A DNA stretch of 12,652 nucleotides. Source: a virus. Location of the stretch: the UHGV virus genome UHGV-0154273. One strand, given 5' to 3'. Shown here one piece after another: positions 1 to 12,652 of the stretch. Made by a program: the position numbers and the translations under genes. A model generated the notes under the pieces. It saw only the letters and a list, made by a program, of their open reading frames with translations, was not told the origin of the DNA and ran no database searches. Numbering within the stretch: position 1 is the stretch's first letter; every line of letters starts with the position of its first letter.

Positions 1-72
1 TTTTTTTTCAAGCAGAAGACGGCATACGAGATCGTGATGTGACTGGAGTTCAGACGTGTGCTCTTCCGATCT
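1..72. other. Sequencing adapter contamination: poly-T (1-8) followed by Illumina P7 adapter with 6-nt index and TruSeq read-2 primer site
   Basis: Seen directly: CAAGCAGAAGACGGCATACGAGAT (9-32) + CGTGAT (33-38) + GTGACTGGAGTTCAGACGTGTGCTCTTCCGATCT (39-72), the canonical Illumina indexed adapter. Not biological sequence. Confidence 0.95.
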
Positions 73-834
73 GGAATCGGGCGGCGGCTCGTCTCTGACT
101 TTCTGGAAGCGAACCAAGATAAGTTTTCCCGCCAGACGCTGCAAAACTGGTTAACCTGCTTAGGGACGCTGTATGACTTCGCCCGGCGTAAATATGACAA
201 TATCGCCCCTGATAATCCCTTTCACGGCCACAATCTGGAAGCCCGCCAGACGAACGAAAGTTATCAACCTTTTGAACTACACCAGCTACAGGCATTAATA
301 AAAGAGGCAGGTAGCGAGATACGAGACGTAATCATAATCGGTTTGTATTCCGGTATGCGTCTCGACGAAATCGCCAGCATCAAACGAGTTGAGATTATCA
401 AAGTTGAAGGGGTACGCTGCTTCTACGTCAGCAAATCTAAAACTAAAGCGGGTGTAAGGCACGTCCCCATACACTCGCTGTTAATCAGCATCGTTGATAA
501 ATACCTTGCGCAGAACAACGGTGAATACCTGCTCCCCCAATCGAACAAGATTAAACGTGCCGACGGTAAGCGTGGCCCGTGGTACTCGCAGGCATTTACA
601 CGGCTACGCCGTCGCGTGCTGTCAGCGGCTACAGATCGCCAATGCTTCCACTCCCTGCGTGGTCACTTTATTACTTGCTTAGACAGAGCAGGAGTACCAG
701 AACAGCGCATAGGGGCAATAACCGGGCATACCGAACAAAAAGCTAAAACGGAAGCTTTCAGGACATATAGCAAGGGAGCAGGGATGAAAGAACTATGGGA
801 GTATGTGGAGTTGGTCAGTTATCCGTGTTTATAA
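73..834 (+). CDS. int: Tyrosine recombinase / phage-type integrase, 5'-truncated by the adapter junction (C-terminal ~254 aa present)
   Basis: Translation from 73 contains a core-binding-like region and a catalytic domain with conserved Arg (LYSGMRLDEI), HSLRGHF (His-x-x-Arg box) and a C-terminal GHTEQKAKTEAFRTYSKG with the candidate catalytic Tyr. The Met at 58 in the ORF track is encoded by adapter bases and is not a real start. Stop TAA at 832-834. Confidence 0.85.
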   Translation, partial: GIGRRLVSDFLEANQDKFSRQTLQNWLTCLGTLYDFARRKYDNIAPDNPFHGHNLEARQTNESYQPFELHQLQALIKEAGSEIRDVIIIGLYSGMRLDEIASIKRVEIIKVEGVRCFYVSKSKTKAGVRHVPIHSLLISIVDKYLAQNNGEYLLPQSNKIKRADGKRGPWYSQAFTRLRRRVLSAATDRQCFHSLRGHFITCLDRAGVPEQRIGAITGHTEQKAKTEAFRTYSKGAGMKELWEYVELVSYPCL

Positions 835-860
835 AAAAGGCGCTATAGCGCCTTTCTTTT
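833..860. terminator. Bidirectional intrinsic terminator between convergent integrase and 124-aa gene
   Basis: A-run (833-838), perfect palindromic hairpin GGCGCTATAGCGCC (839-852), T-rich run TTTCTTTT (853-860). Sits exactly between two convergent stop codons. Confidence 0.6.
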
Positions 861-1233
861 AAACATCAAAGATGACATCACCATGATACGCGTTAAACTG
901 CGGATTCCGCATGATGGTGATCACTTGCTGAACTACCCACTTTGCACCGATATCAAGTTCATGCTCTATAGCGCACGGTATAGCAATACCAGATTTCTGA
1001 CACTTGATAGTGAAGGAAAATCCCTCATCTTTGCCTAGAATTGTCTGCAAGTGTTGTCCAATGAAATTTGTAAAAATCACTCTCAACTCAGCTAACGTGA
1101 TTGGAGGTTTATTACGCGGATCATTAAGTCTATCAACAGCAAAATGAAATGACATCTTTAGCTTGGCTCTATCTTCTTCCAAGATATCGTTAATATCTGC
1201 AACTAAATCATCAATCTGCTGTTGAGTTATCAT
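859..1233 (-). CDS. Hypothetical protein, 124 aa; downstream gene of an AT-rich two-gene cassette (possible toxin/effector)
   Basis: ORF with ATGA start/stop overlap with the upstream 69-aa gene. Sampled 60-bp blocks are ~37-42% GC, lower than the rest of the element. No recognisable catalytic motif by eye. Confidence 0.55.
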   Translation of the reverse strand: MITQQQIDDLVADINDILEEDRAKLKMSFHFAVDRLNDPRNKPPITLAELRVIFTNFIGQHLQTILGKDEGFSFTIKCQKSGIAIPCAIEHELDIGAKWVVQQVITIMRNPQFNAYHGDVIFDV

Positions 1234-1439
1234 ATGTGTGCAGCCGTGATCTCAGCTAATTTCTTGTTCAACTCTTCATCGTTTGAAGCTGTGATGGTGC
1301 CTACAAATTCAGTGCGTGATAAAGTACCAGCACGCACATCGAATTCGTAGTTGTCAAACGAATCAACGACGACAAACGCCTTGGTTGCTGGGTTAAAAAA
1401 CGATGCACAATTTTGGTTTGTACGCATATCAAAGTTCAT
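1230..1439 (-). CDS. Hypothetical protein, 69 aa; upstream gene of the AT-rich two-gene cassette (possible antitoxin/partner)
   Basis: Strong SD (AGGAGGA) 4-5 nt before ATG at 1439. 4-bp overlap (ATGA) with the 124-aa gene indicates translational coupling. Confidence 0.6.
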   Translation of the reverse strand: MNFDMRTNQNCASFFNPATKAFVVVDSFDNYEFDVRAGTLSRTEFVGTITASNDEELNKKLAEITAAHI

Positions 1440-1536
1440 ATTATCCTCCTACCCCTTCAAGGGAGATGTAGGAACGAAGTATTCTCAAGTTGAAGCTCAG
1501 TTTGGAGACATATTAGGAAACTGTTTTATGCTCAGC

Positions 1537-1555
1537 CTACGCAATCTACGTCAAT
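1537..1555. promoter_or_regulatory. Tandem imperfect direct repeat CTACG(T)CAAT x2 in the upstream region of the 69/124-aa cassette; candidate operator
   Basis: ctacgcaat (1537-1545) followed by ctacgtcaat (1546-1555), ~100 bp upstream of the cassette start codon on the coding (minus) strand side. Confidence 0.25.
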
Positions 1556-1640
1556 CCGTCAAGAATTGTTTTAAATATAGGCAAGTAACAAGGCAGCCAC
1601 AACAACACATAACCGAATGAAAATAAAAGAAATAATCTCA

Positions 1641-2078
1641 TCACGCATGTTGTCTTGGATAAATAACGCCCAACCCCTTGTATTGTCGGCGGTAGGCAGG
1701 TAGCATGCTTAACATGCTACCTCGTGAGAGTCCGCACAAATTTCCCACATAATAACCACCTTCCGCTGCATTGGCCGAACGATGAACCACAGCGCGCACA
1801 CGTCCAGTTCGGTGACAGTGATCCAATACAGCAGACGCGAGGCGTAGCGGCTTAGCTGTCACCGCGCAGCGTCGGTATTGATAATTCCACAGGAAGACAC
1901 GGACAGCGGCCACATCAGCGCGGCGCAACTCCAGCCGTCCTGAACCATTCAACAGGAAGTGATACACATCATCGAACGCAGCAGAATTTTTAATGCGTTC
2001 CGCTAGCGGCATGTTGCCGAGATATTCCAGATAGCCTCGCATCGCTTTTCTTAGTAGTTGGTCTGTCCGTGTAACCAT
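1641..2078 (-). CDS. Hypothetical protein, 145 aa (last gene of long minus-strand operon)
   Basis: ATG at 2078 preceded by GGAGG SD at 8 nt spacing. Stop TGA 1641-1643. No recognisable domain. Confidence 0.6.
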   Translation of the reverse strand: MVTRTDQLLRKAMRGYLEYLGNMPLAERIKNSAAFDDVYHFLLNGSGRLELRRADVAAVRVFLWNYQYRRCAVTAKPLRLASAVLDHCHRTGRVRAVVHRSANAAEGGYYVGNLCGLSRGSMLSMLPAYRRQYKGLGVIYPRQHA

Positions 2079-2350
2079 GATTCAAAGCCTCCACTGTCAG
2101 ATGCAGCCCGTTTGCAGGCTTCGTATTCTTCGCGCTGGCGTTGGCATACCAGAGCATAAAGCTCGGCGGCCATCGCATTAACACGTTCGTCACTGATACC
2201 ATTGCGGCGCATCAGCCCCAGCAGCTTACGAAATTTAGCTTCAAGCTCAGGCTCTCCGGTATCCATTACCCACTGTTTCAGGTCAGCGAGTGCGCCAGTC
2301 ATTGGTGGCGGCTCGATGTACCGCCACCTTAATTTAATCGTGGTTATCAT
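2051..2350 (-). CDS. Hypothetical protein, ~99 aa (start refined relative to ORF track)
   Basis: ORF track start at 2398 is a TTG. In-frame ATG at 2350-2348 is preceded by AGAGGA SD at ~9 nt and gives MITTIKLRW... Overlaps the upstream gene stop by 17 nt and the downstream gene start by 28 nt. Confidence 0.5.
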   Translation of the reverse strand: MITTIKLRWRYIEPPPMTGALADLKQWVMDTGEPELEAKFRKLLGLMRRNGISDERVNAMAAELYALVCQRQREEYEACKRAASDSGGFESWLHGQTNY

Positions 2351-2759
2351 TTTCTTTATCCTCTCTGTAAGCCGGGTGCATTGCCCGGTATTGCTCAATG
2401 GTCAAACCCTCGCTGGCCGCTGCAAACCGTTCCTTTTGCTTACCCGCCAATCGCAAGGCGCTGTCTCTCCAGCAGAGCAGAAAGAAGATGGTCAGCACCT
2501 GCTTACTCAAGCCATCCAGAAGATCACCAAGCCCTTGCTCCAGAAGACAGGCACGCCATGCAGCGGCGTGCTCAGTCATAGCACCTACTATCGGGACAGG
2601 TGCTCCGAGCATTGTCGCAAGCTGACTCATAACACTGTTAGCATCGCCCGGATGCAGCCGTGGAATAGTCATGCGGCCAGCCTGCGCCAACAGTTCAGCG
2701 TACCGCTGGCGGCGCGGGTCATCATCTGCCAGCGCTCTAATCGGCTTTTCATCAGCCAT
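2334..2759 (-). CDS. Hypothetical protein, 141 aa (speculatively a small-terminase-like packaging factor given its HNH neighbour)
   Basis: ATG at 2759 with GGAGG SD 9 nt upstream. Lies immediately downstream of the HNH endonuclease gene. Function not recognisable from sequence. Confidence 0.55.
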   Translation of the reverse strand: MADEKPIRALADDDPRRQRYAELLAQAGRMTIPRLHPGDANSVMSQLATMLGAPVPIVGAMTEHAAAWRACLLEQGLGDLLDGLSKQVLTIFFLLCWRDSALRLAGKQKERFAAASEGLTIEQYRAMHPAYREDKENDNHD

Positions 2760-2777
2760 TAATGGAACCTCCGAGGA

Positions 2778-3305
2778 TTAGGCAGCCTGCAATAAATCGG
2801 CTGGCGTTGACGGATGGTATCTGGCTTTAGCTTTCAGGTACGCAGCACGCGCCGCCGCTTCGGTAGTGAATAAGCCGAGGTGATGGCGAACACCACCAAC
2901 GCGAATGTAAGCCTCCCATCTGCCAGAGCAGGCATGGTGGCTATAACCCTTGGCTTTGCGGTAATTGTGCTGGTTCTCTTGTGGCGTAACCGTGCGGAGA
3001 TTGATAAGGCGGTTGTCATCGCGTACCGCGTTGATATGGTCGATTTGCATCCCGGCAGGGATACCGTCATTAGCAATGATGAAGGCGACACGGTGGGCGT
3101 ATAGCGCATGAGATTTGCCATTGATGCGGACAGATACGCGCCTATATCCGGCGCTGTCCGTTACCGTGTCGGCCAGTTCCCCGGCTTTAGCGTAAATCCG
3201 CTTGTTGGCTCCGATCCGGTCTACTGCATGGAACAGGCGGCCAGTCTTCGCATCGTACCGAAACAAAGAGCGCAACAGCTCCGGGGCATAAGCATCAATA
3301 TTCAT
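2778..3305 (-). CDS. HNH endonuclease with C-terminal AP2-like DNA-binding domain (phage homing/packaging-associated type)
   Basis: HNH_3-type motif HRVAFIIANDGIPAGMQIDHINAVRDDNRLINLRTVTPQENQHN (His, Asn and His spacing typical of HNH). C-terminal GYSHHACSGRWEAYIRVGGVRHHLGLFTTEAAARAAY resembles the AP2 domain commonly fused to phage HNH nucleases. Confidence 0.85.
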   Translation of the reverse strand: MNIDAYAPELLRSLFRYDAKTGRLFHAVDRIGANKRIYAKAGELADTVTDSAGYRRVSVRINGKSHALYAHRVAFIIANDGIPAGMQIDHINAVRDDNRLINLRTVTPQENQHNYRKAKGYSHHACSGRWEAYIRVGGVRHHLGLFTTEAAARAAYLKAKARYHPSTPADLLQAA

Positions 3306-3321
3306 GGCTCGGCCCCTTTTG

Positions 3322-4317
3322 TTATGCAGCTTGTCGGAAATTTATAACGCAGTCAGGGCGGCGCAGCCCAACATTGAACAGGCGATATGAGTCCATCACC
3401 ATTGTCATTTCGCGTTCATCATCCCACTGGCGATTGATAACGCTCTGCGCTTCGACTGTCACAAGTACAGACGCAGGCCGGAACAGCGTCGCCCGTGTCA
3501 GCGCTTCCCCTGCGGTCACATCATAATCAGCGCCCAGTTCATGCGCGGTAATGGCTTCCTGCGGGTAACTGTTCAGCTCAATAACTCGCACCCCAGCGAC
3601 ATAGCCAACGCGACGCCATGCGTAATCATTGCCACTATCCCGGCTGTAACGGACGTTCATCAACTTCTTATGTTCCATCAGGATGCTGAACCAAGCTGGG
3701 TCGATGAGAAGGCACAGCTCCGCCACCGGAATATCTTTTTCAGTTAGGAATCGATTAACAGCAGCTTTAATAGCGTGAACCAGTTCGTTAGCCGCATCCT
3801 CTTCGCTCCCCGTTGTCAGGTCGAGCGAGACAACATTATCCGTCAGCGGGTTAAACGTTGGTTGCAACGTAGGCGGCGGTACAAAGTCAGTCGCTTTGAT
3901 TAGCTGGATAGTGTGCGCTTCGTCGTAGAACTTTGCATGGGCTGTCCCCATGTTGCGGCTCAGCTCTGCGCGAAAGGTGGGCGCTGTCCAGTCGTCTTGA
4001 TAGTCAATCGGGATGCGGATATAGCTCAGCGTATCCACAGAGATAATCAGCTTGTCCGACTTAACGGCGGTAGGCTCCAGCGATTGCCCTGCGGTTCTGC
4101 CCTTCACCTCCAGATCTCCGCTCAGGCGGTCTACACGATACTGATTACTGTTTTTCAGCGGCTTGTATGTGCTCAGCCCCTCGGCGAGAAACACGCTCTT
4201 TGCCTCAAGGCGGGTCTGAACGTCCCGGTCATACGCTTCAATGTGAATGTCGTTGTCAGCATCTACACCGCCCCAGTGCGGGCGGAATTGGTCAGGGGTA
4301 TAAACATTGTCAGTCAT
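3322..4317 (-). CDS. Conserved-looking 331-aa protein of unknown function; possibly structural (capsid-like), unverified
   Basis: Long clean ORF with GGGAG SD 8 nt upstream of ATG at 4317. No nucleotide-binding or nuclease motif seen. Sits between a Q/N-rich scaffold-like protein and the HNH endonuclease, a context typical of head/packaging modules. Product assignment is inference only. Confidence 0.7.
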   Translation of the reverse strand: MTDNVYTPDQFRPHWGGVDADNDIHIEAYDRDVQTRLEAKSVFLAEGLSTYKPLKNSNQYRVDRLSGDLEVKGRTAGQSLEPTAVKSDKLIISVDTLSYIRIPIDYQDDWTAPTFRAELSRNMGTAHAKFYDEAHTIQLIKATDFVPPPTLQPTFNPLTDNVVSLDLTTGSEEDAANELVHAIKAAVNRFLTEKDIPVAELCLLIDPAWFSILMEHKKLMNVRYSRDSGNDYAWRRVGYVAGVRVIELNSYPQEAITAHELGADYDVTAGEALTRATLFRPASVLVTVEAQSVINRQWDDEREMTMVMDSYRLFNVGLRRPDCVINFRQAA

Positions 4318-4385
4318 AGAAATAGCTCCCGCGCCAGCGTTAGCCAGCGCGATTTATGGAAAAGGGGAAAAGAGAATGGGATGAA

Positions 4386-4733
4386 TCAGGCAGCAGCTTT
4401 TTCAGCCGCGATCTCAAGAATCAGGCCGATAAGCGCGAAGGCAGGCCAATGGGGATTAAGCTCGTGCAGGTGCGCAACGCCCCCACCAAAAGCATCGCGC
4501 ATATCAGCACCAGAGATGCCCGCGCGTTTGGCCGCCCGGCGCAGCAATCGCAGCTCGGAGCCGGGAACATACGCCGAGGGCATACGCACGCCGAAGCGTG
4601 AGGCGAGCCGCCGCCAGTGCGCTTCGTCAGCAAAGTCCTGCTTAAGCTGGCTGGCGTTGGCTTTCCAGTGTTCAATCCTCGCGCTACGGGCAGCCCTAGC
4701 CGCTGCCACGTTTTCAGGTGTCAGTAAGGTCAT
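4386..4733 (-). CDS. Hypothetical protein, 115 aa, Arg/Ala-rich with hydrophobic C-terminus
   Basis: ORF in operon orientation. Weak SD. C-terminal WPAFALIGLILEIAAEKAAA could be a membrane or amphipathic segment. Confidence 0.5.
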   Translation of the reverse strand: MTLLTPENVAAARAARSARIEHWKANASQLKQDFADEAHWRRLASRFGVRMPSAYVPGSELRLLRRAAKRAGISGADMRDAFGGGVAHLHELNPHWPAFALIGLILEIAAEKAAA

Positions 4734-4812
4734 TGTCAGATCTCAATGCAAAGTGGGTTTATGTGTGGTGTTTGAGAGGTAATTTCGCGTTTTACAGGTG
4801 CAGGTATACGAA

Positions 4813-4832
4813 TGTACATCTGGCGATGTACA
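4813..4832. promoter_or_regulatory. Inverted repeat TGTACAT-N6-ATGTACA in intergenic gap between the 228-aa and 115-aa genes
   Basis: Perfect 7-bp arms (4813-4819 and 4826-4832) with a 6-nt spacer. No U-run follows on the coding strand, so a binding site or attenuator-like hairpin is more likely than a terminator. Confidence 0.3.
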
Positions 4833-4892
4833 ACGCGATTCAGGCTCTAAAACGTAAGGTTAAGACGTGGGGAAGACAGGACAGGCGATTGC

Positions 4893-5579
4893 TTAACGGC
4901 CAGCGCGTTTGCCAGCGGAGCGCTGCGCAACCAGAGCGCGGTATTGATCGTCGTACTGGCGATGGCCGGGGCCATACCCTGATTGCTGCGCCCACTGCGA
5001 AAGCTGATCATACGCTGCAATAAACTCAGCATGAGACATACCAACAGGTTGCGAGGCAGGCTGGCCGTATGGGTTCCCCTGTGATGGGACATAACCAGTC
5101 GCAGTGCCTGCGACCATACGCTCTTGCAGATAATGAACCGCCCGCTGCATCTGCGCAGGGTCGCCAGACATAACCATCCGTTCAAGGGTTGATTGCGTCC
5201 CGGCGTCGAGCGTGCCAGCGTACTGCAACATCGCGTCAACTGTCCCCTGCCCTAGCTGGCTTTCGACAGACTGGTGAAACTGCCCCATCAGCCCATGAAG
5301 TTCAGGAGTCAACTCAACAGTAGTGCCATCCTGTAATTGCAGCGTGTCGCCCACTTGCGCAGCAACATCAATCTGCTGGTCTTGCTGGTTGGCAAAGTTA
5401 CTTTCGTTCCAGCTTTGATTAATGTTCGCTGGCTGCGTTTTCAGGAAATCAGCATCAGGTGTTGTCTGGTCGAATCTGCTAGCGCCGTTGTCAGCGCCTA
5501 CAGGTGCGGCCATGTACGGCGATTGCTGCGGCGCAGTATCAGCGCCCGAAAGGTACGGATTAACATTCTGGTCAGCCAT
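4893..5579 (-). CDS. Q/N/G-rich low-complexity acidic protein, 228 aa (scaffold-, decoration- or mimic-like; function unknown)
   Basis: ATG at 5579 with AAGAGG SD ~10 nt upstream. Composition strongly biased to Gln, Asn, Gly, Asp and Thr, with predicted disorder. Immediately follows the stop of the upstream HTH gene. Confidence 0.65.
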   Translation of the reverse strand: MADQNVNPYLSGADTAPQQSPYMAAPVGADNGASRFDQTTPDADFLKTQPANINQSWNESNFANQQDQQIDVAAQVGDTLQLQDGTTVELTPELHGLMGQFHQSVESQLGQGTVDAMLQYAGTLDAGTQSTLERMVMSGDPAQMQRAVHYLQERMVAGTATGYVPSQGNPYGQPASQPVGMSHAEFIAAYDQLSQWAQQSGYGPGHRQYDDQYRALVAQRSAGKRAGR

Positions 5580-5581
5580 GA

Positions 5582-5821
5582 TTATGCAACCTCTTGTGAT
5601 GTAACTCGGCGATGTGCCAGTTCAAGTAAAAGCATGTGCGCGTGTACGCATCGGGCAGGAATCATCTTCTGTCCGTGGTACGCTTTGCCGAGATCTTGTC
5701 TGTCGATCTGGTACACATGAGCCAAATCGATTTGACGAAGATTCAAGGCTTCGGCAATGAATTTCAGTTGTTGCCCGCAATCAGCCGCGCGGCGTGGCTC
5801 CATTAAAATAATGGTGCTCAT
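5582..5821 (-). CDS. Putative small HTH (XRE/Cro-like) DNA-binding protein, ~79 aa (start refined)
   Basis: ORF track start at 5863 is a TTG. ATG at 5821 has GAGGA SD at 7-8 nt. Segment LKFIAEALNLRQIDLAHVYQIDRQDLGKAYHG has a helix-turn-helix-like pattern. Confidence 0.5.
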   Translation of the reverse strand: MSTIILMEPRRAADCGQQLKFIAEALNLRQIDLAHVYQIDRQDLGKAYHGQKMIPARCVHAHMLLLELAHRRVTSQEVA

Positions 5822-5835
5822 GAAATAATCCTCAG

Positions 5836-6069
5836 TTAGATAAGGCCATGACGACGCAACCAACGTCGCTCGCCAACGGAGCCACGCGGTCGCTGCCTTG
5901 GATTCTGGTTTGGTGCTTGGCCGGGATCAGTTCGCCCTTCCCCGGACAGGTTCTGTGTCAGCACATCCCAGCCGCGTGATTCAAACGGGGCGTATCCCTC
6001 GCGCTGTTCGTCAAGGTTCACATAGAGATCAGGGTTAACGGCAGGGTGCAGCGGTTCGTTCTCTGCCAT
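5836..6069 (-). CDS. Hypothetical protein, ~77 aa
   Basis: ATG at 6069 overlaps the upstream stop (TGATG). The track's extra N-terminal Met comes from a GTG at 6072. Confidence 0.45.
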   Translation of the reverse strand: MAENEPLHPAVNPDLYVNLDEQREGYAPFESRGWDVLTQNLSGEGRTDPGQAPNQNPRQRPRGSVGERRWLRRHGLI

Positions 6070-6632
6070 CACTTAGCCCCGAATCGCGTGTTAACGTCTT
6101 CCAAAATATCTGGATAAGACCACTTGCTACGCATCAGGCGCAGGACATGAGCAACAGCCTCAGCAGAGATCCCAAGCTCCCCAGCGATCTCGGTTTGTTT
6201 CCAGCCGAAGCGCTCCAGCTTGTGCATCTGATCGAGGTCGGCGCTCAACAGGCGGCGCATCGTCTGCGGTTTCTCAGGCTTTGCTTTAACTGCTTTCGGC
6301 ATCGGGTGGGTGTGGGCGTTGCTAAAGCGGGAATGGACGATAGCCAGCACAGTTTCAGGCCGAATTAGAAAATCGCGTGCAATGGCATGTGCAGTGTCCC
6401 AGTGGCCGCGCCCCGGTTTCCAGCGCTTACGGATGGCGTTGTATTCCTCCAGCGTAATAGCGGCTTCATCCCTCCACTGGTTGGCAAGGTCGGCTACATA
6501 AACGCCGCGCAGCACCGCGTCAACGTCCTCCGGGTCAAATCCGGTTGCAGCGACTACCTCTTCCACATTGCGAAGGTCGCGCTTAACGAGGGTATTGATG
6601 CGCTGGATATCGGTCAGGCTCAGAACTGTCAT
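6069..6632 (-). CDS. HTH-domain protein, 187 aa (C-terminal sigma-70 region-4/LuxR-like helix-turn-helix; regulator or small-terminase-like)
   Basis: C-terminal DLDQMHKLERFGWKQTEIAGELGISAEAVAHVLRLMR matches an HTH pattern. ATG at 6632 overlaps the stop of the upstream small ORF (ATGA). Confidence 0.6.
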   Translation of the reverse strand: MTVLSLTDIQRINTLVKRDLRNVEEVVAATGFDPEDVDAVLRGVYVADLANQWRDEAAITLEEYNAIRKRWKPGRGHWDTAHAIARDFLIRPETVLAIVHSRFSNAHTHPMPKAVKAKPEKPQTMRRLLSADLDQMHKLERFGWKQTEIAGELGISAEAVAHVLRLMRSKWSYPDILEDVNTRFGAK

Positions 6633-6805
6633 AAGGTAAAGTCTCCATCGAAATTGATTTGATCTTCAATCAGCGTGCGAATGAGTAGCAGGCTGGAAGC
6701 GGTGTGTGTTCCCGTCTTGCGGGCGCTTTCATACATGGCTCGTGCTGCGCTCTGATAGTTCGGCGGCAGGGTTGCAAACCATGCTCTAAACTCTGCGGGT
6801 GTCAT
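6629..6805 (-). CDS. Small ORF, 58 aa, not in the supplied ORF track (below its length cutoff)
   Basis: Translated by hand: MTPAEFRAWFATLPPNYQSAARAMYESARKTGTHTASSLLLIRTLIEDQINFDGDFTL. Its ATG (6805-6803) overlaps the TGA of the upstream 68-aa gene and its TGA overlaps the ATG of the 187-aa gene, fitting the coupled operon pattern. Confidence 0.4.
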   Translation of the reverse strand: MTPAEFRAWFATLPPNYQSAARAMYESARKTGTHTASSLLLIRTLIEDQINFDGDFTL

Positions 6806-7008
6806 TGCTCGTCATCCTCAAATACACGGTTAAATGACGTGTCCGGCGCTTCTACGGCATTGGCCTTAAGGAAGTTGACCGCACTGGATAACTCCGCTGC
6901 GGCCATGCGCGACTCACCAGCCTTGTCTTCCTCAAGGCGGCGGATTAGCGCCCCAAGAAGCAAGCCTTTCATTCGCCACGTTTCATTTTCAAACTCGGTT
7001 TTAGTCAT
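6802..7008 (-). CDS. Hypothetical protein, 68 aa
   Basis: ATG at 7008 lies within ATGACTAA, which also contains the stop of the upstream 145-aa gene. Confidence 0.5.
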   Translation of the reverse strand: MTKTEFENETWRMKGLLLGALIRRLEEDKAGESRMAAAELSSAVNFLKANAVEAPDTSFNRVFEDDEQ

Positions 7009-7438
7009 GCGGATTAACTCCTGTCAGCCCCATTACGCGCAGGTACTGGATTACTTCGGCGTGTACTGGTTTTGGTAAAAAGAGGCGACGCTGCACAGAT
7101 TGAAATATCTCGTCGCGCGTCTTGTTGGCAGGGTGAACAGTCCCATTAAAGACCTCACGAGCCATGCGATAGGTCGGCCAAAGACGAGCGCCATCCTCCC
7201 GGCGTCGGAATCTATTCAGCACAGCGGCCAGACATTCCCAAGGCTCACAGTGATTGAGCAGGCAATACCGCTGTAGCGGCGTACCAGCTTGGCGCAAGAT
7301 GGCCGCACGATTAAGAGTCTGGCGGTGGCGCTCAGCTAACCCATCGAAGGAATATCCGTTCAGGGCGAAGGCAAGTTGTGCGGTGACGAGCGCATCCGCA
7401 CGCGTAGCACGACGCTGCGCATGTTCGGTAACAGGCAT
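7001..7438 (-). CDS. Hypothetical protein, 145 aa
   Basis: ATG at 7438 with TGGAG SD ~8 nt upstream. Follows the helicase stop after a 38-nt gap. Confidence 0.6.
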   Translation of the reverse strand: MPVTEHAQRRATRADALVTAQLAFALNGYSFDGLAERHRQTLNRAAILRQAGTPLQRYCLLNHCEPWECLAAVLNRFRRREDGARLWPTYRMAREVFNGTVHPANKTRDEIFQSVQRRLFLPKPVHAEVIQYLRVMGLTGVNPHD

Positions 7439-7476
7439 ATGGATTAACTCCAGAGAATGAGGGGGAGCCTTTCGAC

Positions 7477-9321
7477 TCAGAGGTATTTAGCGATGTACTG
7501 CCAGTTGCAGTTTTCAGGGCGGTAGAAGTAAGCAAGCTCATCAGGCGCAGCATCCAGCGCCAGCGATGACCACAGCAGAAACGCGCGGGCAGGTTGACCA
7601 TCGCGCCCGGCTCGTCCAATCATCTGAATGAGGTCAGGCAGGTCATCAGGAATATATGTAACGATGACGTTGCGAATGTCTGGCACATCAGCCCCCAGCC
7701 CGAAGGCTTTAGTAGCAATCAGAATTGCGCCCGGCGTAGTGGCAAACCACTCAGCGTTTGCGTGGCGTTCTTCGTTACTCAAGTGCATCGTCTTCGAGTG
7801 ATATGGGCGCGCCCGGTCGCCTAAGAGTTTCAGGTACGCCCGCAACGTCTTAAGGTCATTGACGAGAATGAGCGTCTTCTCTTCTTTCGGCAGAGCCTCG
7901 ACCAGACCAATAGCCGCTCGGAAACGTTCGCGGCACTGTCTGACTGTCGTCAACTGGATATTTTCGCGAGCAACATCAGCACGGAATGTTACGTAATCAC
8001 CACGGCAGCCAAGCGACGCCATTAAACTGCGCTCATTTTCGCGTAGCAGCGTAGCCGTAAATACGCAGCGTTGAGCCGAAAGAAAGGCATGTTGTAGCGA
8101 GTGCTGCATGGCCTCGTAAGCGGGTCGGAAATCCCAGTCTTTAACCGTGTGCGCTTCGTCGATGATAAAACGATCAACGCCGTAAGCCATCAGCGCCGCG
8201 AAGACCTGACTCGACAGAACAAGATGCTCAGGTGAAACGACAGCAACACGGAACGCCCCGGCAGCCAGCCCCGCGAGTTGTTGAGCGTTGCGGTGCCTCG
8301 GCAACTTGTCACCGAATGCCACAGCGTGAACGCCAGCATCCCGCAACTGGCGGAGAATCTGGCGCTTTAGGGTATTAGTGGGAACCACGATTACAGACAG
8401 GCCAACGCCAGCGCGGGACTCATAAATCAATGGATAAGCGAAGGCGGCGGTCTTGCCATAACCCGTAGGCAGAACGGCCAGCACATCACTACCACGGGAG
8501 AAGATCGCATCAGCAACAGACAACTGCCCCGGCCTCCACTCCAGCCCATCGGGTGGCAACAGGCTAACGCGTGCGTTTCGGTCACAGCGAACCAGCGGGC
8601 GAAACTCATAAGAGGCTGTATTCAGTGACGGCACAGACGGCGACACTGCCAAGCCGTTTGGGTCACAATGATGATTTGTACTGTTAAATTTATCCTCGGT
8701 AGGTTTCGACTCTCCACACCACAATTGACGAAACTCCGCTGAGTCCCCGTAGCGTTTGAAATCTGAATTGCGCATCGCTTCCAGTTTATTCATGCCCCTG
8801 TTGATGCGGTGTATAGTCTTCTCATCACAAATCAGGAACTCGCGGCAGGCTTTGAGAAAAGCATTCTGCCCGGTTGTCGATGCCGAAACGGCGTGCTCGC
8901 GCGGTTTCAATGCGGCATCATCTACGCGAACACCGGGAAAATCAGGCGGCAGCGGGTCAGCATACCGAGCAGGCTTCTTGTTGAGCCACATTTCTATCTC
9001 AGCGCGTCGGCAATGAATTGCGTCACCGGGCTGGATGACTTGCCGCAACCCCGTGTCAGAGCGCTGTTTTTGCTTCTTCGGTTGAACACCATGCAGCGCT
9101 CGCCATTCCCGCAGGGTCATAGCGGAGCCATCAGCATTGTAATAAAACTCTTCGGTCTTCGTGTTGTATGCCGCCTTAACGGGTTTATGCTTTATCGGGC
9201 ATATCTTGGAACGCCGAATAACAATCCCGTCAGCGACCATTTGCTGTACATCTGCGTTTGCGGTATTGAGCGGGTCAGCGTCGGCAGCCTGCGCAAGCAA
9301 ACGGCGTAGGTTCGTTGGCAT
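7477..9321 (-). CDS. RecQ-family superfamily-2 DNA helicase (DEAH box) with an unrecognised ~280-aa N-terminal domain; likely replication helicase of the element
   Basis: Helicase motifs read directly: RPGQ (Q-motif-like), LPTGYGKTAAF (Walker A/motif I), SPEHL, IIDEAHTVKDWDFRPAY (DEAH motif II followed by the RecQ-typical aromatic-rich loop), FTATL (motif III), MIGRAGRDGQ (motif VI). No RQC/HRDC tail. ATG at 9321 with GGAGA SD 9 nt upstream. Confidence 0.9.
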   Translation of the reverse strand: MPTNLRRLLAQAADADPLNTANADVQQMVADGIVIRRSKICPIKHKPVKAAYNTKTEEFYYNADGSAMTLREWRALHGVQPKKQKQRSDTGLRQVIQPGDAIHCRRAEIEMWLNKKPARYADPLPPDFPGVRVDDAALKPREHAVSASTTGQNAFLKACREFLICDEKTIHRINRGMNKLEAMRNSDFKRYGDSAEFRQLWCGESKPTEDKFNSTNHHCDPNGLAVSPSVPSLNTASYEFRPLVRCDRNARVSLLPPDGLEWRPGQLSVADAIFSRGSDVLAVLPTGYGKTAAFAYPLIYESRAGVGLSVIVVPTNTLKRQILRQLRDAGVHAVAFGDKLPRHRNAQQLAGLAAGAFRVAVVSPEHLVLSSQVFAALMAYGVDRFIIDEAHTVKDWDFRPAYEAMQHSLQHAFLSAQRCVFTATLLRENERSLMASLGCRGDYVTFRADVARENIQLTTVRQCRERFRAAIGLVEALPKEEKTLILVNDLKTLRAYLKLLGDRARPYHSKTMHLSNEERHANAEWFATTPGAILIATKAFGLGADVPDIRNVIVTYIPDDLPDLIQMIGRAGRDGQPARAFLLWSSLALDAAPDELAYFYRPENCNWQYIAKYL

Positions 9322-9436
9322 GGTGAAATCTCCAAAATTAAGGTGAGTTTAGAACGAGGCGCAGGACGGCAGCGCCGAGCTGCCCGTAGAGAGAATTTCA
9401 TGTCAGCAGTGACGTTGAATGTTCTGTCCCTCTTTA

Positions 9437-9462
9437 GTAGTGACTTTCATGTAGGTCACTAC
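9437..9462. promoter_or_regulatory. Perfect 8-bp inverted repeat GTAGTGAC-N10-GTCACTAC upstream of the helicase operon; candidate operator
   Basis: Arms at 9437-9444 and 9455-9462, ~115-140 bp upstream of the helicase start codon on the coding-strand side. Confidence 0.35.
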
Positions 9463-9510
9463 GTATGCACAAGCGAGTGGTGTTCGTTTTGCCACAGTAG
9501 AAACTCTAAT

Positions 9511-9529
9511 TTGATTATTTTTTAATCAA
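9511..9529. promoter_or_regulatory. AT-rich inverted repeat TTGATTA-TTTTT-TAATCAA in helicase-recombinase intergenic region
   Basis: 7-bp arms (9511-9517 and 9523-9529) with a 5-nt T spacer, within an AT-rich stretch that may hold the operon promoter or an origin-like region. Confidence 0.25.
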
Positions 9530-10211
9530 CACCTTTGTAAGCCTTGCCCTGTCTGACTTGATGAATGATTTGCTGATAACTTTCAGTAGGTTTGTTGGGA
9601 TGCTGGGATGTAAGGGGTTATAAGCGGCATTGTGAGTACCATATCCCAATATAGTACCGTACCACTACTCTATCCCCGCCGCGTTGACTGCCTGGCAAGC
9701 ACGGTTGCGTGGAGGGCCGAGCATCACAGCGGGCGAAGGCCGGGAATGAGCCAAAGGCGATGGAGCGGGCTGGAGCATAGCGAGAAGCGCAGCCAGTGTA
9801 GAGCGAAAAGCGATAACACTGATTAGGAGAAGGGATGAAAGGGAAGAACCCTTTTCTGTACATGTATTTTAAATGCAACTTTAAAGGTAAAACGAAGGTG
9901 TTGCCCTGCTTCAAATCTAGCTGAGTGATTGGACAACACAGCCTTTGATCCCTTCCCCTGCCCCATCCCTCGAATTGTTCAGTGATAAATCACATTCACA
10001 ATCTGATCTTGATACTCATCGTCTGGCACGGCTAAAGCCCCGCCATCTCTTCATATCAAGAGCCGCAAGTAATACGGAAATACATTATAAATCATACCAT
10101 TACGAGATTAGGCATAACATAAATATCTGATATCAATACAAAAGCTGTAGGCCATCCATCACCCACAGCCCAGTAACGGCCAGTGCTGGCATCTCATCAG
10201 ACTGTAGGTCA

Positions 10212-10844
10212 TCACTCTGTAACGCTGGCGGACAGCTCACGTTTGATACGGTAGAACGTTGCCCGGCTTATCCCGGCAGCTTTCATGATGTGCTCTGGTT
10301 TATTCCCAACGGTAAGCATAGCGCGGACAGTTTCACGGGCGCTCTCATCCTTAGACTTCCCGTTATATTTCCCCTCGGCTTTGGCACGCTTGATGCCCTG
10401 CGCTTGGCGTGCTCTGCGTGTCTCGTAGTCCACTCGTGCCATCGTAGCGAGGATATCAATCAGCATTGCGTTAACAGCTCTCAGGATGCCCTCTGTAAGC
10501 TCTGACGCCGTATCGTTCAGTAGTTGCCATGAGGTTGGCAGGTCAACGGCAACGATCACCAGTCCCTTATCCTGAATCCTCTGTTTCAGTGTCGCCCATT
10601 CCTTTTGCGTAAGGCGGCTTAGCCTGTCGATGCTCTCGACAAGCAAGACCTCTCCGGCCTGCGCATCATCCAGCAAGCGCATTAGTTCAGGACGCGCCAG
10701 CCTCGCACCGCTGGCGTTCTCGATGTACTCCGCCCGTACAGGCCAGCCCCGATCACTGGCGAACTCTCGCAGCAAGCCCAGCGCCCGGTCTGCGTGTTGC
10801 TCTGATGTACTGGCGCGGCAATAGATAAGCGCATTGTGTGCCAT
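10212..10844 (-). CDS. Serine recombinase of the resolvase/invertase family, 210 aa
   Basis: N-terminal catalytic region with YCRASTSEQ (Ser nucleophile motif), RPELMRLL and LLVESIDRLSR, which parallel Hin/resolvase motifs. C-terminal HTH (KAAGISRATFYRIKREL). ATG at 10844 with G-rich SD. Confidence 0.85.
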   Translation of the reverse strand: MAHNALIYCRASTSEQHADRALGLLREFASDRGWPVRAEYIENASGARLARPELMRLLDDAQAGEVLLVESIDRLSRLTQKEWATLKQRIQDKGLVIVAVDLPTSWQLLNDTASELTEGILRAVNAMLIDILATMARVDYETRRARQAQGIKRAKAEGKYNGKSKDESARETVRAMLTVGNKPEHIMKAAGISRATFYRIKRELSASVTE

Positions 10845-10970
10845 GCTTCCCCCTAAGTCTCAATGAAATATCACAGCAAGACCTATAAGAGATCACATCA
10901 ATAATGTGTAGTCAATAGAGTTTTATAGATAGTCAAATGAGACAGTGTGTCTATGTCTTTATCAGGTATA
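10845..10970. promoter_or_regulatory. Candidate res-like / autoregulatory region upstream of the serine recombinase gene
   Basis: Short repeats directly upstream of the recombinase start: direct repeats TAGTCAAT (10909-10916) and TAGTCAAAT (10930-10938), palindrome AGACA-GTG-TGTCT (10940-10952), repeated ATCACA motifs (10870-10900). By analogy with Tn3-family res sites lying just upstream of tnpR; inference only. Confidence 0.25.
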
Positions 10971-11561
10971 CCCGAAAGAGACTGGCACCGCCCCACAGCA
11001 GCATTCCCCGGCACATCCAGCGAACACAGCGTAGAGCGCACGCAGCAGATCAGCACGGCACCGCCACGATCTCGAAATCACAAAGGCATTGAATCACACA
11101 TTGGAAGCACAGAACGCAGCACAGAGCGATACAGATCGTTTTAGAGGGATGTACAGATACACAGTGAAAGGCAGATGATCGCAGCACTCGTCCCACACGG
11201 TTATTCAGCAACAGCAATCAGCCAGCATCTCGCTCAGTAGCACGCTCCTGTAATGCTTGTCTCGGATGAGCAAAATCTTAGGGTTTCTCAGCGACCCCTG
11301 ACGCGCGGGCACGCACATGCACACGGGGGCGCGGGCGAGCTATAGAGTTGAGGGAGGGGCAACCATAAGCGTGCAATTTTCAAGCTGGGACTTTTAACAG
11401 TGGGATTGTGGGGCTGTTTTGCATTCAGAGAGTGAGGCTGTGGGGGAGCCCTCCTTGAACCAAATAATGCGAAACTGATCATTCTTCCACGTAGCTTAGG
11501 CCACTTTGCATGGATAATTAGCACCAAACACAGCAGCCAGTTTAAGAGAAATGCGCGACAT

Positions 11562-11780
11562 CTACCGTCTGCGTTTACCCCAGCGCTGCATTATGGCTCT
11601 GTGTGCTTCATCCGCTGACCATTCAATAGGTACAACAACGTGTACAGGCATTTCATCGCCAGAGGGGGCACCACGTAAATGGACTCTATACCCTAGTTTA
11701 TTAAGTTCTACCTCGGACATCGGTGATATAACCTCGCCGCTATGGCTGCCGCCAACAAACTCAGCTTTAAAATCCAACAT
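11562..11780 (-). CDS. Hypothetical protein, 72 aa
   Basis: ORF whose ATG (11780-11778) is preceded, 1 nt away, by a 9-nt homopolymeric G tract on the coding strand. The plus-strand ORF 11551-11874 covers the same DNA; the minus strand is preferred because of operon orientation but this is uncertain. Confidence 0.4.
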   Translation of the reverse strand: MLDFKAEFVGGSHSGEVISPMSEVELNKLGYRVHLRGAPSGDEMPVHVVVPIEWSADEAHRAIMQRWGKRRR

Positions 11781-11781
11781 G

Positions 11782-11790
11782 CCCCCCCCC
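11782..11790. repeat. Homopolymeric tract C9 (G9 on coding strand) abutting the start codon of the 72-aa gene
   Basis: Nine consecutive C at 11782-11790. Potential slipped-strand phase-variation site or assembly-error hotspot. Confidence 0.9.
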
Positions 11791-11823
11791 TACACACTAA
11801 CAAGAATCATTGAAGGTGTATCA

Positions 11824-11841
11824 CCCAGCAACTACGCTGGG
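11824..11841. promoter_or_regulatory. Hairpin-forming inverted repeat CCCAGC-N6-GCTGGG between the 153-aa and 72-aa genes
   Basis: 6-bp arms (11824-11829 and 11836-11841). No immediate U-run, so terminator function is uncertain. Confidence 0.25.
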
Positions 11842-11870
11842 CAGAACATCACCTCGGACTATCAATCAAC

Positions 11871-12329
11871 TTAGTATCGCTTTGTGTCTCGTAGTATTAC
11901 AGACAGTAACCACCACCATTGGCGTTTGATCCAACAAACATCACTGAACATCTTGCCGTCAGATGTTTTGATATAAACCCCGCCACGATGATGCACTTTG
12001 TTGTGATGAGCCTTATTTATGAATGGCACGTTCAAGACCATTTCGTCTCGTGCTTTCAATCTTTTTGGCAGCATCGGTGTGATCATGTTCTCGTCCGAAT
12101 ATTCGTCGGATAACATTCTAAGGCGTCCACTGGCTGTTACCACACCGGCTGCACTCAACGTTACATCGTGTGCGCTTATGTTCGAAACGTATATCCTGTC
12201 CTCGTGCTGATCACATCCGAGATAAAGCCTTAGCGATGTTCTGGATTTTAGTAATTGAAATACGGACAAAGCAAAACCCGCCCACGCCGCGATCCCTGTC
12301 CAGTTATCTGTTTGGGTGATCCAAGTCAT
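11871..12329 (-). CDS. Predicted membrane-anchored protein, ~152 aa (N-terminal transmembrane helix), in AT-rich cassette
   Basis: ATG at 12329 overlaps the stop of the upstream 75-aa gene (TGATG); the track's start at 12332 is a TTG. N-terminal hydrophobic segment WTGIAAWAGFALSVFQLL. Sampled blocks ~37-40% GC. Confidence 0.6.
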   Translation of the reverse strand: MTWITQTDNWTGIAAWAGFALSVFQLLKSRTSLRLYLGCDQHEDRIYVSNISAHDVTLSAAGVVTASGRLRMLSDEYSDENMITPMLPKRLKARDEMVLNVPFINKAHHNKVHHRGGVYIKTSDGKMFSDVCWIKRQWWWLLSVILRDTKRY

Positions 12330-12556
12330 CAAGGCTGCATCCCCTTCGACATAAGATACTTAACGATCCCTTCTCGTTGCCTATTACTCAGCTGAAAACA
12401 TTTGTCTAGTTGAGATAAAACCTGCTCGACATCATCTGCCAAGATGGCACTAGCTGCACGAGCGGGGAGATCTCCCTGAATTTTGATAGTGAAATACCCT
12501 GAAGATATTGATAGCTTCAAAAAACAACCTGCTGAGAACTCGTAACTCTCGCTCAT
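12329..12556 (-). CDS. Hypothetical protein, 75 aa, first gene of right-end AT-rich cassette
   Basis: ATG at 12556 with AGAGG SD 7 nt upstream. Its promoter would have to lie beyond the compositional junction at ~12557-12571. Confidence 0.5.
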   Translation of the reverse strand: MSESYEFSAGCFLKLSISSGYFTIKIQGDLPARAASAILADDVEQVLSQLDKCFQLSNRQREGIVKYLMSKGMQP

Positions 12557-12571
12557 AACCGCCTCTGTTGA

Positions 12572-12652
12572 CAGTTCGGCGAGCGCATTGCCGACGGCCG
12601 CACGCGTGTGTACCTGGTCAACACCGGCTGGATCGGCGGCGGCTACGGCGTG
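12572..12652 (+). pseudogene. pckA: Internal fragment of an ATP-dependent phosphoenolpyruvate carboxykinase (PckA)-like gene from a high-GC genome; truncated on both sides
   Basis: In-frame translation QFGERIADGRTRVYLVNTGWIGGGYGV contains the YLVNTGW-GG-YG signature of the PckA kinase region. An in-frame TGA lies immediately upstream (12569-12571). The fragment is ~68% GC with G/C-rich third positions, unlike the rest of the window. Confidence 0.45.

Follow-up and report, generated by a model that had tools for sequence, protein, structure and literature searches.

The analyzed window (UHGV virus genome UHGV-0154273) is an entire contig of 12,652 nucleotides that carries the 3' part of a tyrosine integrase gene, several genes with recognizable phage or nuclease domains, and a non-native tip at each end. 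Its features are as follows, with the strand indicated where assigned.

1-8, no strand, T8 run TTTTTTTT, interpreted as a piece of the T10 spacer carried by the surface P7 oligonucleotide
9-32, plus strand, P7 flow-cell binding sequence CAAGCAGAAGACGGCATACGAGAT, exact (24/24)
33-38, plus strand, 6-nt sample index CGTGAT, the reverse complement of ATCACG
39-72, plus strand, Read-2 sequencing-primer site GTGACTGGAGTTCAGACGTGTGCTCTTCCGATCT, exact (34/34), with the ligation T as base 72
58-834, plus strand, spurious "complete" open reading frame (ORF) of 258 aa with a GTG start, found both in the mechanical ORF list and in the gene call of the public record
73-834, plus strand, genuine 3' part of the tyrosine integrase gene, 253 codons and a stop, 100% identical to the int gene of LR536431 (WP_023063082.1)
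1641-2078, EndoVII-like nuclease
2778-3305, HNH nuclease
3322-4317, minus strand, major capsid/head protein
4893-5579, possible scaffold protein (weak scaffold-like hit)
7477-9321, RecQ-like helicase
10212-10844, serine recombinase
12576-12652, plus strand, chimeric right tip of 77 nt, 77/77 identical to Collinsella records

Identity of the first 72 bases

Exact comparison of window positions 9-72 with the indexed Illumina P7-side adapter gave 64 identities in 64 positions. The analytic chance expectation for such a 64-mer match is 7e-35, and none of 200 shuffled sequences contained the 64-mer, even with up to 3 mismatches tolerated. The sequence ATCACG is index 1 of the TruSeq/NEBNext series, and the P7 sequence, the index, and the Read-2 site together constitute the 64-nt index-1 PCR primer or adapter. 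The left end of the window is the same as this primer (CAAGCAGAAGACGGCATACGAGAT-CGTGAT-GTGACTGGAGTTCAGACGTGTGCTCTTCCGATCT) over all 64 bases and differs from it by the addition of 8 T residues that are absent from the primer. The adapter lies at the very start of the contig in the reverse-complement orientation. No other adapter 12-mers, including those of P5 or a second adapter piece, were found on either strand in the rest of the window. The junction between adapter and genome (72|73 or 71|72) is uncertain by 1 base because the T at position 72 coincides by chance with the E. coli reference.

An earlier note, made from the letters alone, had described these bases as a poly-T run followed by a complete indexed P7/TruSeq adapter and had proposed an adapter screen as a check. 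The screen, run here by exact matching, bears out that description, with the T8 run, the 64/64 match at 9-72, and nothing further in the window. The following marks of contamination with a P7-side adapter are present: the P7 sequence, the Read-2 site abutting the insert, the index, the location at a contig end, and absence of the whole from independent copies of the locus. Window positions 1-72 are thus almost certainly an adapter artefact that is part of no genome. They are a typical example of adapter contamination at the end of a contig, contain no real feature, and hold nothing novel.

Occurrence of the same adapter in other records

When window positions 1-3000 were compared by megablast with 50,697 phage records, only the adapter was matched, in 18 records from unrelated hosts and mostly at their extreme first or last bases; this search gave no DNA-level relative of the element among the phages. 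Alignment of four of these records, those of Bacillus phages HD73phi and Whiting18, Klebsiella phage phiKp_32, and Salmonella phage TS13, revealed the same order in all four: a T-run, the P7 sequence, an index, the Read-2 site, and then unrelated sequence. The T-run comprises from 3 to ∼17 bases in the aligned records, compared with 8 in the window. The index, 6 or 8 nt in length and different in each record, is the sole variable stretch of the adapter, while P7 and the Read-2 site are invariant. A shared architecture with a variable index is the signature of a library oligonucleotide and not of a biological element.

The 18 adapter-bearing sequences were deposited as "complete" phage genomes; examples include MK310228.1 (at its end), LC768500.1 and MK249308.1 (both at the start), and PV611058.1 (positions 295321-295354). 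In some records, the adapter underlies annotated features, such as a repeat_region in Staphylococcus phage Andhra, a "Sir2" CDS in Escherichia phage WPEC3, and a hypothetical protein in a Stenotrophomonas phage. The 40-mer spanning the adapter/genome junction of the window had no matches among the IMG/VR viral contigs.

Reverse-complement adapters have been reported to cluster at contig beginnings in MGnify-type assemblies, where they can break contigs, and adapter trimming followed by re-stitching improves contiguity and allows contigs to be joined (BMC Genomics 2024, PMC11536531). The window resembles those cases in that a reverse-complement adapter (CTCTTCCGATCT with flanking read-specific sequence) opens a SPAdes-type contig from an ENA/MGnify-type assembly, and the contig stops there. 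Unlike the universal 12-mer described in that study, the window retains the full adapter through P7 and the T-run, and the effect on one particular gene call can be documented; nothing essential differs.

The truncated integrase gene

Window segments 72/73-9708 and 10258-12576 match the E. coli chromosome NZ_LR536431.1 at 99.96 to 99.99% identity. Upstream of the equivalent of window position 73, this chromosome carries integrase sequence and no adapter, with position 73 falling 321 nt into the gene for the annotated 360-aa tyrosine recombinase WP_023063082.1. The earlier note had stated that only independent sequencing with exactly these 72 bases in a genome could overturn the adapter assignment; in the independently sequenced NZ_LR536431.1, integrase sequence is found in their place.

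The genuine part of the window protein contains the PF00589 catalytic domain at residues 70-222 (41.3 bits against a gathering cut-off of 27.1, E value of 1.8e-10), and the integrase also matches phrog_1 with an E value of 3e-29. Intact integrases of 403 and 408 aa are encoded in the related islands of E. coli NCTC11023 and strain 5735. In an alignment with these two proteins, the window protein starts at column 154, so that ∼153 N-terminal residues are missing. In the relatives, a DUF6538 domain spans residues 8-60 and a SAM-like domain spans residues 111-202, and searches of the window protein gave no hit for either; the domain set of a complete integrase is not found there because the contig end truncates the protein. 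Over their C-terminal 253 residues, WP_171965228.1 (408 aa) and WP_111732386.1 (403 aa) share 84 to 90% identity with the product of the genuine 73-834 segment, and the PF00589 domain is common to all three. In contrast, residues 1 to ∼153 are absent from the window copy, which has five adapter-coded residues instead.

The catalytic domain is complete in the genuine part, which lacks the arm-type DUF6538 domain and the beginning of the SAM-like core-binding domain. The real gene encodes a tyrosine integrase of ∼406 aa, of which the contig retains only residues ∼154-406. The proposal that the true 5' part of int is missing is thus upheld, both by the continuation of integrase sequence upstream in LR536431 and by the ∼153 codons that are present in the relatives. 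Together with the core of the attachment (att) site, these codons make up the sequence missing from the contig, roughly 0.56 to 0.58 kb.

The adapter-made ORF at 58-834

The integrase reading frame is closed upstream by a TGA codon at positions 40-42, within the adapter, and stays open from 43 to 834. A GGAG at positions 45-48, located 9 nt upstream of the GTG codon at position 58, mimics a ribosome-binding site. With the TGA at 40-42, the GGAG at 45-48, and the GTG at 58-60 all in place and in frame, the truncated gene was therefore called as a "complete" protein of 258 aa. Its codons 2 to 5 (CTC TTC CGA TCT, encoding L-F-R-S) also come from the adapter and are followed by the genuine residues G-I-G-R-R. 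That the apparent start codon consists of adapter bases, as had been pointed out before, is correct, since positions 58-60 are within the adapter; even so, the public record has its gene start there. The exact product of this ORF is recorded once, in ena:ERZ773532:NODE_1986_length_12652_cov_8.917932, where the gene is called at 58-834.

This potential is not limited to one reading frame. A GTG follows the last stop codon in all three frames of the adapter (at positions 58, 56, and 39), and at least the last 30 bases of the adapter are open in every frame. The possible adapter-coded N termini are M/V-LFRS, M/V-CSSD, and M/V-TGVQTCALPI.

Attachment site and island boundaries

The element is an island of 14 to 15 kb at the 3' end of the tRNA-Gly gene glyU, with window positions 73-12570 corresponding to positions 11553-25285 of the NZ_LR536431.1 locus (referred to here as L001). 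Relatives of the island were detected in ∼60 of the 5,426 complete E. coli genomes. In both intact relatives, the att core is a 29- to 30-bp copy of the glyU 3' end, TGGAGCGGGCGAAGGGAATCGAACCCTCGT, located 87 to 89 nt upstream of the int ATG; in strain 5735, it starts 576 nt upstream of the equivalent of window position 73. The glyU gene itself is at the opposite end of the island, ∼15 kb from the int-side repeat in NCTC11023, and 13.7 kb from the IS1A junction in LR536431. An integrase gene beside the distal att repeat is the classic arrangement for islands that insert at tRNA gene 3' ends. A tRNA gene together with a direct repeat beside int was found in the relatives from NCTC11023 and strain 5735, and not in the window, which contains neither a tRNA gene nor a copy of the glyU att core with up to 3 mismatches tolerated. 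On the right side, the genuine sequence of the contig ends ∼1.3 kb before glyU. Both boundaries of the island therefore lie outside the contig.

The situation on the left side is complicated by an insertion sequence. Compared with an intact relative, the int gene of LR536431 lacks its first 11 nt, and an IS1A element stands in place of these and of all sequence to their left. The 360-aa integrase annotated in LR536431 is itself incomplete, as it starts from an internal ATG and its frame is open upstream to the end of the IS1A. Given this IS1A in the closest genome, the att site may be gone from the source strain as well. The earlier suggestion that the adjacent att site is missing and the left boundary artefactual is therefore upheld, with one refinement: the site is absent from the window and its core is present in the relatives, but int and att may not be adjacent in the source strain either.

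The IS1A copy of NZ_LR536431.1 occupies L001 positions 10786-11553 and abuts a truncated gene for a YqeG-like transporter (yqeG-like), with no target duplication. In strain 5735, the region upstream of the island int (locus L003) contains partial repeats of the glyU 3' end at positions 972-994 and 5425-5453 and a second, divergently oriented integrase gene at 3657-5291. This arrangement suggests that two islands reside in tandem at glyU in that strain.

Gene content of the island

The island encodes a major capsid/head protein, which matches phrog_267 with an E value of 3e-67 and shares ∼57% identity with its counterpart in coliphages of the genus Bonnellvirus (Autographiviridae). Together with the possible scaffold protein, the two nucleases, the helicase, and the serine recombinase, it makes the gene content of the island satellite-like. 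Searches of the element detected no genes for a portal, terminase, or tail, and no description of a glyU satellite with a capsid gene was found in the literature. It could be speculated that the element is an undescribed capsid-encoding phage satellite that exploits T7-like helpers, but this must be regarded as doubtful.

The window differs from LR536431 by a 549-bp stretch at window positions 9709-10257, between the helicase and serine recombinase genes, which takes in the final 15 recombinase codons and is absent from LR536431. At the place of the missing 549 bp, the LR536431 junction shows a 5-bp microhomology. An insertion in the window or an assembly error was considered and ruled out, as the segment is contiguous, at ∼90% identity, in ∼40 other E. 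coli genomes. The comparison thus identifies the difference as a deletion in LR536431.

Right end of the contig

The match to E. coli stops at window positions 12570-12576, with a mismatch at 12571, and the bases beyond are GC-rich. This right tail had no matches among the 5,426 complete E. coli genomes. Exact copies of a 45-mer taken from it occur in at least 120 genome records, and nearly all of the matches listed belong to Collinsella or other Coriobacteriaceae; over the full stretch of 12576-12652, 15 of the matching Collinsella/Coriobacteriaceae records listed are identical at 77 of 77 positions. The tail encodes ...GERIADGRTRVYLVNTGWIGGGYGV, a motif recognized as that of phosphoenolpyruvate (PEP) carboxykinase, so the gene is presumably pckA. 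The possibility that the source strain simply has a different island flank, represented by the GC-rich tail, was also considered and was ruled out by the lack of any E. coli match and by the perfect identity to Collinsella.

The right tip is thus a cross-species chimeric join. The combination of E. coli and Collinsella sequences points to a gut metagenome as the most likely origin of the contig. A chimeric tip of this kind supports the view that the contig comes from an unpolished metagenome assembly of imperfectly cleaned reads at low coverage (8.9).

Origin of the terminal adapter

From the architecture of the left end, we infer a route that involves read-through, an origin of the T-run in the flow-cell oligonucleotide, and missing trimming. 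Read 1 would run off the end of a short insert into the A/T ligation base and the Read-2 site, then through index 1 and P7, and finally into a series of A's. The poly-A would be templated by the poly-T spacer through which the P7 oligonucleotide is bound to the surface, and the start of the window would show the reverse complement of such a read; the read-through reads themselves would end with AGATCGGAAGAGCACACGTCTGAACTCCAGTCAC-ATCACG-ATCTCGTATGCCGTCTTCTGCTTG-AAAA. Surface P7 oligonucleotides are written as T10 followed by CAAGCAGAAGACGGCATACGAGAT (PMC13584795), and the T8 run is probably part of this T10 spacer, although the correspondence is approximate, with 8 rather than 10 T residues here and ∼17 in another record. 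If the reads were assembled without full adapter trimming into the SPAdes-style contig NODE_1986 (k-mer coverage of 8.9), at least one untrimmed read would have become the left tip of the contig, and base 73, inside the integrase gene, would mark the end of the insert.

Whether the adapter caused the break is a separate matter. The adapter may be an artefact that did not truncate the gene; the contig would then have ended near this point in any case, because of a coverage gap (∼9×) or an IS1 repeat a few hundred bases upstream, and the adapter would be no more than the protruding end of the outermost read. The k-mer coverage of the contig, just 8.9, is consistent with this explanation, as are the IS1A element of the nearest genome, LR536431, which ends 448 bp upstream of the junction, and the opposite end of the contig, which likewise stops in a non-native tip. 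However, the break is not at an IS1 edge, the usual place for repeat-induced breaks, and the source strain differs from LR536431 by the 549 bp, so it may not carry this IS1 at all. Furthermore, adapters themselves break contigs, as indicated by the higher contiguity after trimming and re-stitching (PMC11536531). On balance, termination independent of the adapter is a reasonable possibility with a somewhat less than even chance of being true. The view that the adapter truncates the integrase gene accordingly stands in its descriptive part, as the front of int is missing and the adapter is in its place; the adapter may have caused the break or may simply have been attached to it.

Two other explanations concern the adapter itself. 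The left end could derive from a chimeric library molecule, in which an adapter or adapter dimer became attached to an E. coli fragment by ligation or template switching. The right end of the contig is evidence of chimeric joins in the same data set, but the orientation of the adapter, its completeness through P7, the T-run, and the terminal position all fit read-through and the pattern in the other records, and a second adapter or P5 piece is absent, which makes such a molecule a very unlikely source. Finally, the idea that the 72 bases are genuine, coming from an engineered strain or constituting the true N terminus of the integrase, draws on the open frame 43-834 with its GTG and GGAG, and nothing else speaks in its favor. 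It conflicts with the exact match to a synthetic 64-mer, the same constant parts of which are fused, with other indexes, to unrelated phage genomes; with the conserved integrase sequence found at the junction in a 99.99% identical chromosome and in two relatives; and with the lack in the called protein of the DUF6538 and SAM-like domains that are present in those relatives. The probability of this explanation is negligible. Read-through into the adapter of an untrimmed read is the preferred reading of the left end.

Implications for the public records

The value of the finding is that of a quality-control flag only. The public contig should lose its left 72 bases and its right tip (12571/12576-12652), and any element ends, att site, completeness, or circularity inferred from the untrimmed contig would be wrong. 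A contig that opens with this adapter can systematically make a truncated gene look complete. The 258-aa "integrase" is an example of such a product, a chimeric and N-terminally truncated protein that is held in public collections as complete and should be treated as a 5'-truncated fragment.
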